In this document: one piece after another, positions 39,194 through 40,549 of the stretch | Layout: the number at the start of each line of letters is the position of its first letter | Numbering within the stretch: the first letter of the stretch is position 1 | Position numbers and translations under genes: made by a program | Sequence record: NC_054912.1 | Origin: Escherichia phage vB_EcoM_F1 | Length of the DNA stretch: 64,000 bases | Direction: 5' to 3' (one strand) | Notes under the pieces: model-generated | Told to the model about the DNA's origin: nothing | The model's input: only the letters and a program-made list of their open reading frames with translations | The model's database searches: none

Positions 39194-39270
39194 TGGTCGA
39201 GACAGAAGGATTCTAACCTTCAACCTACGGATTAGAAGTCCGTTGCTCTATACAATTGAGCTATGCCCCG
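39194..39270 (-). tRNA. tRNA-Arg (anticodon UCU), CCA encoded
   Basis: Manual cloverleaf: 7-bp acceptor (two G-U), D stem GCUC/GAGC, anticodon loop CUUCUAA, T stem GAAGG/CCUUC; T loop UUAGAAU and D loop without GG are atypical. Confidence 0.7.
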
Positions 39271-39273
39271 TAA

Positions 39274-39939
39274 TTAAAATTTCATTTTTCGACCTTTAAA
39301 CCATCCTTCTGGAATTGGGTCAGTTTTCTTAATACGTTTAGAAACTTTTTCATCTAATGAATGAATCCACATCATACCAAATTGGGAATTCTTTTCACCT
39401 TTCTGGTGATTATTTTTAGCGTGAATTTCTTTCATTTTATTAATAGTTTCAAGAGTATGATGCTTATTTAAAAATCTGCTATTATTTAAAAATTTTTCCC
39501 TGTATTCAGGAGTTGACCACAAGCGTTTAAATACATTTGAACCATGTTTACGATATTTTTCTTGAAGTAAAATATCATTTTTAAAACGTGACTTAAACGA
39601 TTTAGCTCCTTTTAAACTAGCGTCTTTCTTCTGGTTTAGCATCTCAGGAATATTTATATGATCCCATCCGCCTTCACCGCCAAGTTTTAAATTATACACA
39701 TCTGGTCTATTTAAAAACTCTTCTGTGACAATATTTTTCTCGGCTTCAAGCATAGATTCTTTATCATCAAAATATTCTAATATTTCTTTAGAAAAATTTT
39801 CTATACCATACCTGTCTTGGGCTCTTTTTAATAATTTACCAGAACCCATATATCCATCATCTAAATTTTCGGTAGAATGCACACCAATATAAATTTTATT
39901 ATTAATTTTATTTGTTATTTTATAAGTGTAATGGAACAT
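39274..39939 (-). CDS. segB: GIY-YIG homing endonuclease SegB
   Basis: 221 aa; YTYKITNKINNKIYIGVH GIY-YIG motif; sits inside the tRNA cluster as in T4. Confidence 0.85.
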   Translation of the reverse strand: MFHYTYKITNKINNKIYIGVHSTENLDDGYMGSGKLLKRAQDRYGIENFSKEILEYFDDKESMLEAEKNIVTEEFLNRPDVYNLKLGGEGGWDHINIPEMLNQKKDASLKGAKSFKSRFKNDILLQEKYRKHGSNVFKRLWSTPEYREKFLNNSRFLNKHHTLETINKMKEIHAKNNHQKGEKNSQFGMMWIHSLDEKVSKRIKKTDPIPEGWFKGRKMKF

Positions 39940-39980
39940 AAATATCTCCTATTTCTAAGAGTATTTATGTTCCCAAAATA

Positions 39981-40052
39981 TGGCCCTGGGTGGAATTGAA
40001 CCACCATCTGGCGATTATGAGTCGCTTGCTTGAACCTTCCAGCTACAGGGCC
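39981..40052 (-). tRNA. tRNA-Ile/Met type (anticodon CAU), no encoded CCA
   Basis: Manual cloverleaf; anticodon loop CUCAUAA; acceptor GGCCCUG/CAGGGCC. Confidence 0.8.
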
Positions 40053-40053
40053 T

Positions 40054-40129
40054 TGGTGCTGATTGACGGAATCGAACCGCCGACATCCTCATTACAAGTG
40101 AGGTGCTCTACCTACTGAGCTAAATCAGC
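40054..40129 (-). tRNA. tRNA-Thr (UGU), CCA encoded
   Basis: Anticodon loop CUUGUAA; 1 nt from the Ile-type tRNA (dimeric precursor arrangement). Confidence 0.85.
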
Positions 40130-40136
40130 GAAATTA

Positions 40137-40223
40137 CGGAGGCGATAGGATTTGAACCTATGAGTCGCCGGAGCGACTGCCGGTTTTCAAGACCGGTGCA
40201 TTAAACCACTCTGCCACGCCTCC
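40137..40223 (-). tRNA. tRNA-Ser (UGA), class II, no encoded CCA
   Basis: Long variable arm; anticodon loop CUUGAAA. Confidence 0.85.
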
Positions 40224-40225
40224 AG

Positions 40226-40299
40226 TCTCCGCGGCAGGATTTGAACCTACGACATTCTGCTCCCAAAGCAGACGCTCTACCAAACTGAGCTACACGGAG
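40226..40299 (-). tRNA. tRNA-Pro (UGG), no encoded CCA
   Basis: Anticodon loop UUUGGGA; 2 nt from tRNA-Ser. Confidence 0.85.
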
Positions 40300-40309
40300 T
40301 AAATTAAAT

Positions 40310-40383
40310 TGGAGCGGATAATGAGAATCGAACTCACATCATCAGATTGGAAGTCTGAGGTAATACCATTATACGATATCCGC
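40310..40383 (-). tRNA. tRNA-Gly (UCC), CCA encoded
   Basis: Anticodon loop CUUCCAA; acceptor GCGGAUA/UAUCCGC. Confidence 0.85.
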
Positions 40384-40388
40384 AAATT

Positions 40389-40475
40389 TGGTGCGAGAAG
40401 TGGGACTCGAACCCACAAGGAAATCATTCCGCAGCATTTTAAGTGCTGTGCCTTTACCAATTTGACCATTCTCGC
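40389..40475 (-). tRNA. tRNA-Leu (UAA), class II, CCA encoded
   Basis: Anticodon loop CUUAAAA; long variable arm. Confidence 0.85.
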
Positions 40476-40476
40476 G

Positions 40477-40549
40477 CTGGGAATAAAGGACTCGAACCTT
40501 TGCATCCTGGAATCAAAATCCAGTGCCTTACCAACTTGGCTAATTCCCA
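40477..40549 (-). tRNA. tRNA-Gln (UUG), no encoded CCA
   Basis: Anticodon loop UUUUGAU; 1 nt from tRNA-Leu. Confidence 0.85.

Follow-up and report, generated by a model that had tools for sequence, protein, structure and literature searches.

The eight tRNA genes carried by a 64-kb stretch of the genome of Escherichia phage vB_EcoM_F1 (NC_054912.1; hereafter the window, meaning the whole stretch that was analysed) most probably represent a T-even tRNA operon of the genus Tequatrovirus. According to our reading, to which we assign a probability of roughly 0.85, the locus has the layout of T4 but is built of tRNA-Ile and tRNA-Arg alleles of the T2/Sf24 type; its tRNA-Arg would remain functional through compensated tertiary pairs, and its two-layer pattern of encoded and missing CCA ends appears to have been shaped by the homing endonuclease SegB. 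The cluster as such is already known, being the classic T-even tRNA operon in a deposited phage genome, and it is largely ordinary. It belongs to the type on which dimeric tRNA precursors, the substrates of RNase P and CCA repair were first elucidated.

ARAGORN predicts eight tRNA genes in the window and no more, spanning 39194-40549, in the order Gln(UUG), Leu(UAA), Gly(UCC), Pro(UGG), Ser(UGA), Thr(UGU), a tRNA with the anticodon CAU labelled Met, and Arg(UCU). All eight match the Rfam family RF00005 with 59-75 bits against a gathering score of 29 (E <= 3e-11), and therefore none of them is a chance match. An earlier note on this DNA, made from the sequence alone, had described eight tRNAs in this interval with segB inserted between the tRNAs for Ile and Arg, and both statements hold. 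The automated prediction departs from the assignments given here in two minor points, the Met label of the CAU tRNA and the boundaries of tRNA-Ser, which ARAGORN places at 40136-40224, one base wider at each end than Rfam and the T4 annotation (40137-40223). The earlier note passed over the rnaD and rnaC homologues, the link between segB and the missing CCA ends, and the G3·U70 pair of tRNA-Arg. The genes in question, in positions of the window and all on the minus strand, are as follows.

40476..40549, minus strand: tRNA-Gln (UUG), ARAGORN and Rfam (67.4 bits), discriminator G at 40477
40389..40475, minus strand: tRNA-Leu (UAA), ARAGORN and Rfam (59.3 bits), CCA encoded at 40391-40389
40310..40383, minus strand: tRNA-Gly (UCC), ARAGORN and Rfam (65.8 bits), CCA encoded
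40226..40299, minus strand: tRNA-Pro (UGG), ARAGORN and Rfam (67.5 bits), without encoded CCA, discriminator A at 40226
40137..40223, minus strand: tRNA-Ser (UGA), Rfam (62.6 bits), without encoded CCA
40054..40129, minus strand: tRNA-Thr (UGU), ARAGORN and Rfam (75.4 bits), CCA encoded
39981..40052, minus strand: CAU tRNA, of the tRNA-Ile2 (lysidine) type, ARAGORN and Rfam (59.9 bits), without encoded CCA
39276..39980, minus strand: segB cassette, the stretch without a counterpart in the segB-less phage Sf24
39274-39939, minus strand: segB coding sequence, by similarity to T4 SegB and a GIY-YIG match
39194..39270, minus strand: tRNA-Arg (UCU), ARAGORN and Rfam (69.2 bits), CCA encoded

The 3-kb region around the tRNA genes is 100% identical to that of Escherichia phage vB_EcoM_FN and matches 918 phage records, nearly all of them from T4-like enterobacterial phages. 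T4 (NC_000866, 70.9-72.5 kb) shares with the window the order Gln, Leu, Gly, Pro, Ser, Thr, Ile, segB, Arg, rnaD, rnaC on one strand, the spacers including the tight pairs separated by 1-2 nt, and the CCA pattern, in which only Leu, Gly, Thr and Arg have the triplet. The Leu, Gly, Ser and Thr genes are identical in sequence to those of T4, SegB is 96% identical, and the homologues of rnaD and rnaC are 98% identical. On the other hand, tRNA-Arg and tRNA-Ile of the window are other alleles, Gln and Pro differ in their stems, and the window has a 116-aa open reading frame (ORF) between Arg and rnaD as well as a 157-aa ORF with a duplicated terminator further downstream. The segB-less clusters of the T2/Sf24/RB type (Gln ... 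Ile, Tyr, Asn, (His), Arg) have an identical tRNA-Ile allele, the 116-aa ORF after Arg, and flanks 93-97% identical to those of the window; they differ in having CCA after Ser and Ile, and Tyr and Asn genes in place of the segB cassette. The tRNA-Arg of Sf24 belongs to the same allele family as that of the window, with a U19-A56 pair, and that of T2 has a canonical elbow and an acceptor stem like the window's except for A3 in place of G3.

The D loop of the tRNA-Arg, AAUUGUAUA, contains no GG, and the T loop, UUAGAAU, has A at position 56, as the earlier note had read them. The conclusion drawn there, that the usual G19-C56 tertiary pair is thereby lost, does not survive closer inspection. With the usual Arg layout of the D loop (14-15-16-17-18-19-20-20a-21) the residues are A14, A15, U16, U17, G18, U19, A20, U20a and A21, so that U19 is complementary to A56 and a U19-A56 pair stands in place of G19-C56. 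Likewise, A15 is matched by U48 of the variable loop (AGGUU), giving A15-U48 instead of G15-C48. G18 and U55 as well as U54 and A58 are present, the Rfam score of 69.2 bits lies far above the threshold of 29, the minimum-energy fold is a clean cloverleaf, and the bacterial arginine identity elements A20, C35, U36 and A73 with the anticodon UCU (PMC9976931, Table 1) are all found. Both tertiary pairs having been exchanged with compensation, the L-shaped elbow is probably kept, and judging from its sequence this tRNA-Arg would be a functional allele in which the elbow pair has been replaced rather than lost.

How common such replacements are was assessed in viral tRNAs sharing the D-arm layout of the tRNA-Arg, retrieved with positions 15 and 19 left free in the search pattern (98 distinct sequences). 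The pairs were distributed as follows.

Pair 19:56: G-C 85, U-A 8, A-U 4, C-G 1, other 0
Pair 15:48: G-C 66, U-A 0, A-U 29, C-G 0, other 3

Thus 19:56 is a Watson-Crick pair in 98 of the 98 sequences, a level that 10,000 shuffles never attained. A damaged or decaying gene, in which the D loop has lost its contact with the T loop, might be suspected from the missing GG and from A56, given that C56 is found in 972 of the 997 distinct viral tRNAs of the fetched loci. However, U19 is complementary to A56 as in all comparable tRNAs, the second tertiary pair has also been swapped with compensation, pairing is complete in every stem, only one of the eight tRNAs scores higher with Rfam, CCA is encoded, and the allele is kept, with compensatory changes in the stems, in at least 13 sampled phages from several genera; we therefore find decay hardly credible. 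In UPEC07 and UFV-AREG1, for example, the U19-A56 allele is combined with different, yet fully paired, acceptor and T stems. The comparison with T4 that the earlier note had proposed reveals a different allele and not an altered T4 copy: T4 tRNA-Arg (GUCCCGC...) has the D-loop GG and C56, and cannot be aligned with the tRNA-Arg of the window over most of its length.

A compensated Watson-Crick pair other than G19-C56 (U-A, A-U or C-G) is present in 13 of the 98 distinct Arg-type viral tRNAs, some of them from unrelated IMG/VR contigs (L184, L256, L292, L331). Unlike the tRNA-Arg described here, these come from independent lineages with other acceptor stems and anticodons, and the combination of U19-A56, A15-U48 and the acceptor stem CGGGGCA is found only in the T-even family. 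One of these contigs, L184 (IMG/VR 3300037993_001242, 199 kb), encodes six tRNAs (five Arg and one Ser) with T loops lacking C56; in the three that have the analysed D-arm layout, residue 19 is complementary to residue 56 (U-A, U-A and C-G), and the tRNA elbows of this phage may have been altered systematically.

The ORF at 39274-39939 is identical to T4 SegB in 213 of 221 residues (96%, over the full length), and its product has an N-terminal GIY-YIG domain (Pfam PF01541, 27.9 bits against a cutoff of 22.6) and falls into phrog_314, homing endonuclease; together with its location in the tRNA cluster, these features identify it as SegB. In comparison to the segB-less Sf24, homology of 96.8% extends down to the discriminator of tRNA-Ile (39981) and resumes at 93% from 39275 on to 38483, and the 705-bp cassette stands where Sf24 has 180 bp comprising CCA, a spacer, tRNA-Tyr and tRNA-Asn. 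The cassette begins directly after the Ile discriminator, and therefore the lack of CCA on tRNA-Ile marks the border of this mobile element; the cassette ends 5 nt before the first nucleotide of tRNA-Arg. T4 has the same left junction and nearly the same right one, segB and Arg being 3 nt apart in the window vs. 5 nt in T4. Another locus (L365, OBCQ01000004.1, 6161-6317) has a CCA-less T4-type tRNA-Ile and, 6 nt away, a tRNA-Arg of the A56 type, segB being absent from the interval, an arrangement that looks like cassette loss or a recombinant.

The presence of CCA was tabulated against the presence of segB in 26 T-even-type loci from individual GenBank phage records, which are neither a random nor a phylogenetically independent sample; searching IMG/VR and the metagenome contigs by patterns specific to T-even phages gave only 3-5 loci each. 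The counts of genes with encoded CCA, and Fisher p values, were the following.

Gln and Pro: never encoded, in segB-positive or segB-negative loci
Leu: 14/14 segB-positive, 9/9 segB-negative, p 1
Arg: 14/14 segB-positive, 12/12 segB-negative, p 1
Ser: 0/13 segB-positive, 8/9 segB-negative, p 2.8e-5
Ile: 3/14 segB-positive, 11/12 segB-negative, p 4.8e-4
Gly: 7/14 segB-positive, 9/9 segB-negative, p 0.019
Thr: 6/13 segB-positive, 7/7 segB-negative, p 0.044

Two layers can be told apart: in these loci CCA never occurs on Gln and Pro, which stand upstream in the tightest dimers, and Ser and Ile lack it nearly only in segB carriers. The three segB-positive phages with CCA on Ile are those with a tRNA-Tyr gene between Ile and segB. 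In addition, all 13 segB-positive loci covering the cluster are without tRNA-Asn, which all 9 segB-negative ones have. The segB carriers without CCA on Gly (trailer CAAA) and Thr (trailer TATC), namely L002, L374, L375, L376, L388, L389 and L390, are the loci of G8, JE01, PD112, SHFML-26, FL08, e11/2 and fPS-2, and they share one common haplotype. In Salmonella phage GRNsp7 (L383) the tRNA-Tyr gene lying directly beside segB has the trailer CCAT; every other encoded CCA of the 26-phage table has a purine next to it.

The specificity of SegB offers a rationale for this association. Two studies describe how the SegB enzymes of T4 and T6 cleave tRNA genes at GGTTCRANTCC...CCAR and home into segB-less phages (PMC2330249, PMC13096335). 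The 27-bp site begins with the T-arm motif GGTTCRANTCC, with the cut preferred just after CCAR; the preferred site lies in T2L tRNA-Asn, from which T2L tRNA-Ser differs at five positions (PMC2330249), and the later study gives the motif as RAWTSGAAC (PMC13096335). We scored each gene by its matches to the 27-mer of T2 Asn.

Asn: Sf24 23/27, gene absent from the window
Ser: Sf24 22/27, window 20/27
Ile: Sf24 19/27, window 14/27
Leu: Sf24 18/27, window 18/27

The three best matches in Sf24 (Asn, Ser and Ile) are exactly the three genes that are deleted or CCA-less in the window. We infer that SegB shaped the mixed CCA pattern by way of insertion scars, co-conversion or self-protection.

A simpler account would have the association reflect linkage only, with the CCA-less Ser and Ile alleles traveling with the cassette by co-conversion and the cleavage preference of SegB being irrelevant. 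We regard this as a serious contender that falls somewhat short of even odds. In its favor, SegB homing is described in PMC2330249 as co-converting flanking markers over ~1.25 kb, the CCA-less Ser site of T4 is still cleaved by SegB, and the TAAT trailer occurs in 11 of the 13 segB-positive phages that have the Ser gene, which suggests one origin. However, two distinct CCA-less Ser trailers (TAAT and TTGC) are found among segB carriers, and phage BP32 combines a TAAT-type Ser with CCA on Ile and Tyr, both located between Ser and segB, so that a single contiguous conversion tract is no explanation for its pattern. The coincidence of the changed sites with the three best matches to the preferred site likewise speaks for a role of SegB beyond linkage.

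It is tempting to extend self-protection to tRNA-Arg, the immediate neighbor of segB, and to suppose that C56 was changed to A, with G19 to U as the compensating change, under selection to break the SegB motif (GGTTCRANTCC/RAWTSGAAC) and thus protect the phage's own DNA. Indeed, the T arm of the tRNA-Arg, GGTTAGAATCC, breaks the C of the published motif. Nonetheless, the A56 allele is about equally common with segB (8/14) and without it (5/12), it occurs in Mosigvirus and Gaprivervirus phages that have no segB at the locus, similar pairs other than G19-C56 are found in unrelated viral contigs, and the other tRNA genes of the same phage retain the motif, all of which makes this scenario quite improbable. 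T2 was considered as a natural test of SegB on an A56 T arm and rejected: the T loop of T2 tRNA-Arg is canonical, so the published cleavage of T2L tRNA-Arg is silent on A56.

The tRNA with the anticodon CAU, which the earlier note had assigned to isoleucine, fits a lysidine-type tRNA-Ile2. Its closest matches in E. coli are tRNA-Ile genes with the CAT anticodon (~80% identity), with which it shares the GGCCC/GGGCC acceptor stem, the anticodon arm GCGACUCAUAAUCGC and A73. It differs from them in its D arm (GCUGGAAGGUUCAAGC), which is unusual and has G13·A22 as a mismatch, in an A27·C43 mismatch, and in the lack of encoded CCA. Of the elements that specify Ile in bacteria it holds A73, C4-G69, U12-A23, C29-G41, A37 and A38, and it has C4-G69 and C5-G68 where the Met set calls for U4-A69 and A5-U68 (PMC9976931, Table 1). 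The allele is not that of T4, whose homologous gene is annotated as tRNA-Ile, but is identical to that of T2, Sf24, slur13 and ZN18. An elongator tRNA-Met is what ARAGORN reports (Met(cat)) and what the annotations of relatives, including many GenBank records, state. We consider it very improbable, since the best E. coli matches are annotated as tRNA-Ile, the Met determinants are replaced and the Ile determinants present, the T4 gene is annotated likewise, and the published analysis of CAU tRNAs in T4-like phages by Nolan et al. reached the same Ile conclusion (PMC1524935). The Met label is expected for a lysidine-type tRNA-Ile. The earlier note had named disagreement between automated and manual assignments as what would count against it, and in form this label is such a disagreement, but the Ile reading still holds. 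Judging from the identity elements, the host TilS would presumably turn C34 into lysidine, so that AUA would be read as isoleucine.

The spacing of the genes, identical in the window and in T4 (NC_000866) together with the CCA trailers, conforms to the dimeric-precursor arrangement that the earlier note had recognized in the pairs Gln-Leu, Pro-Ser and Thr-Ile, and the T4 literature agrees (PMC11143913). Between Gln and Leu the discriminator G (40477) is followed by a single C and then by the first nucleotide of Leu, the C at 40476 serving both as the spacer and as the first C of the future CCA of tRNA-Gln. Between Pro and Ser the discriminator A (40226) is followed by CU (40225-40224) and the first nucleotide of Ser, and between Thr and the CAU tRNA the CCA of Thr is followed by a single A (40053). 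CCA stands directly after the discriminator in Leu, Gly, Thr and Arg, and the trailers without it are C followed by Leu (Gln), CU followed by Ser (Pro), UAAU (Ser) and UAUU (CAU tRNA), so the division into four CCA-encoding and four CCA-less genes given before is confirmed. In T4, six of the eight tRNAs come from dimeric precursors, of which Pro-Ser and Thr-Ile are named, and Pro and Ser both lack encoded CCA, with UAA after Ser (PMC11143913). A polycistronic precursor cut by RNase P, with CCA added by the host, is known for T4 only (PMC11143913, PMC2330249). By analogy, a single transcript would start at a promoter just upstream of tRNA-Gln, run through seven tRNAs, segB, tRNA-Arg, the 116-aa ORF, rnaD and rnaC, and end at the hairpin at 38515-38492. 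RNase P would cleave at every tRNA 5' end, dimeric intermediates being formed by Gln-Leu, Pro-Ser and Thr-Ile, the 3' ends would be trimmed by host exonucleases, and the CCA-adding enzyme of the host would finish Gln, Pro, Ser and Ile, as known for T4. Nucleases that trim 3' ends and the cca gene both have a part in maturing the tRNAs of T4. The sequence TGCTTAA lies on the minus strand at 40567-40573, just upstream of tRNA-Gln. We take it to resemble the MotA box of T4 middle promoters.

All eight anticodons read A-ending codons. Among the 15,253 codons from ORFs of the window, which has 35% G+C, the shares within the respective codon families are 28% for AGA, 18% for AUA, 40% for UUA, 39% for GGA, 38% for CCA, 28% for UCA, 30% for ACA and 72% for CAA. 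In E. coli the shares of AGA, AUA, UUA, GGA, CCA, UCA, ACA and CAA are roughly 4, 7, 13, 11, 19, 12, 13 and 35%. With A-ending codons making up 18-72% of their families in so A+T-rich a sequence, the phage tRNAs would supplement the host pool for these codons, which is the accepted view of T4 tRNAs (PMC1524935). Alternatively, they could serve mainly to replace host tRNAs destroyed by anti-phage nucleases, as the tRNA-Tyr of T6 counters the Septu nuclease and SegB amplifies the tRNA-Tyr gene (PMC13096335). We find this unlikely as the main role: no nuclease is known against these eight species in this system, the phage has no tRNA-Tyr, and all eight anticodons fit the A-ending codons heavily used by the phage. 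The two roles are not mutually exclusive.

Several points weigh against our overall reading. The association between segB and missing CCA comes from the 26 loci with the sampling limits stated above, and the losses in Gly and Thr amount to one haplotype. The segB-less phage UFV-AREG1 is also without CCA on Ser, plain linkage to the cassette could yield the same pattern, and the CCA-less Ser gene of T4 is still cut by SegB in vitro (PMC2330249), so loss of CCA gives no immunity. The limits of the transcript, the order of processing, CCA addition, lysidine formation and aminoacylation would follow from homology to T4 and from sequence rules, and the argument for codon supplementation leans on approximate E. 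coli codon shares. Finally, a scan for sigma-70 promoters gave 15 sites vs. 14.5 expected from shuffled sequence, which is no excess and is uninformative on the start of the operon. The association between segB and CCA is not mentioned in the searchable text of PMC2330249 and PMC13096335.

Downstream of tRNA-Arg the window continues, as in T4, with rnaD, rnaC and a terminator, except for an inserted 351-nt ORF that separates rnaD from Arg.

38825..39175, minus strand: 116-aa ORF (phrog_3355), between tRNA-Arg and rnaD
38711..38828, minus strand: rnaD homologue (T4 species 2 stable RNA), 98% identity to T4
38566..38704, minus strand: rnaC homologue (T4 species 1 stable RNA), 98% identity to T4
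38492..38515, minus strand: terminator-like hairpin and T run, where the tRNA transcription unit probably ends

Neither rnaC nor rnaD is represented by a family in Rfam. The 116-aa ORF has no Pfam match, and its stop codon overlaps the 5' end of rnaD; T2, Sf24 and G8 have this ORF, T4 and RB6 do not, and a homologue is named endonuclease in one GenBank record. The 157-aa ORF (phrog_2280; 37964-38437, minus strand) lies between two near-identical terminator hairpins (38492-38515 and 37933-37956), and relative to T4 the stretch from 37933 to 38515 is an insertion, with duplication of the terminator. Weak Rfam matches to Plastid-ycf2, Plastid-psbl-rps4, sX4 and YrlA were dismissed as artefacts, being far under the gathering scores and on or antisense to tRNA genes; in particular, the weak matches to plastid untranslated-region families on the plus strand at 39980-40129 and 39196-39265 are antisense images of tRNA genes.

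The acceptor stem of the tRNA-Arg deserves a separate comment. It consists of C1-G72, G2-C71, G3·U70, G4-C69, G5·U68, C6-G67 and A7-U66, followed by A73, and thereby contains in full that half of the bacterial alanine identity set which lies in the acceptor stem, i.e. A73, G2-C71, G3·U70 and G4-C69 (PMC9976931). We rejected filing it as tRNA-Ala: position 20 is A rather than G20, the anticodon is UCU, and 3:70 is not conserved. All 25 tRNA-Ala among the fetched viral tRNAs have G3·U70, as do 16 of the 972 others; half of these 16 belong to the T-even Arg family, with the caveat that one search pattern had a fixed G3. In relatives of both Arg allele types 3:70 is G·U or A-U in about equal numbers, and it is G-C in UPEC07 and UFV-AREG1; since the pair is polymorphic, G3·U70 is not required. 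Most likely it is tolerated because arginyl-tRNA synthetase recognizes A20 and C35 strongly. It is a long shot that in this phage, as in about half of its relatives, tRNA-Arg(UCU) has a dual identity, the alanine acceptor half being combined with the arginine elements A20 and C35, such that alanyl-tRNA synthetase of E. coli could charge a fraction of it and alanine would be inserted at AGA. A literature search on G3 U70 with bacteriophage returned no match.

As one more tRNA cluster in a T4-like phage, the locus adds nothing new, and the association of segB with missing CCA and the G3·U70 pair are modest leads. G3·U70 in an arginine tRNA constitutes a natural test of the alanine identity rules and, if the dual identity were true, the G3·U70/A3-U70 polymorphism among T-even phages would be a natural switch for Ala/Arg ambiguity. 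The tRNA-Arg appears to be a natural, long-lived, compensated swap of the conserved G19-C56 pair and of 15:48, and it illustrates that a missing GG and a missing C56 are no proof of lost function. As to why some T4 tRNA genes lack an encoded CCA, in this sample the lack tracks the presence of SegB, which hints at a connection, open to testing, between a selfish nuclease and the reliance of these tRNAs on the CCA-adding enzyme of the host.

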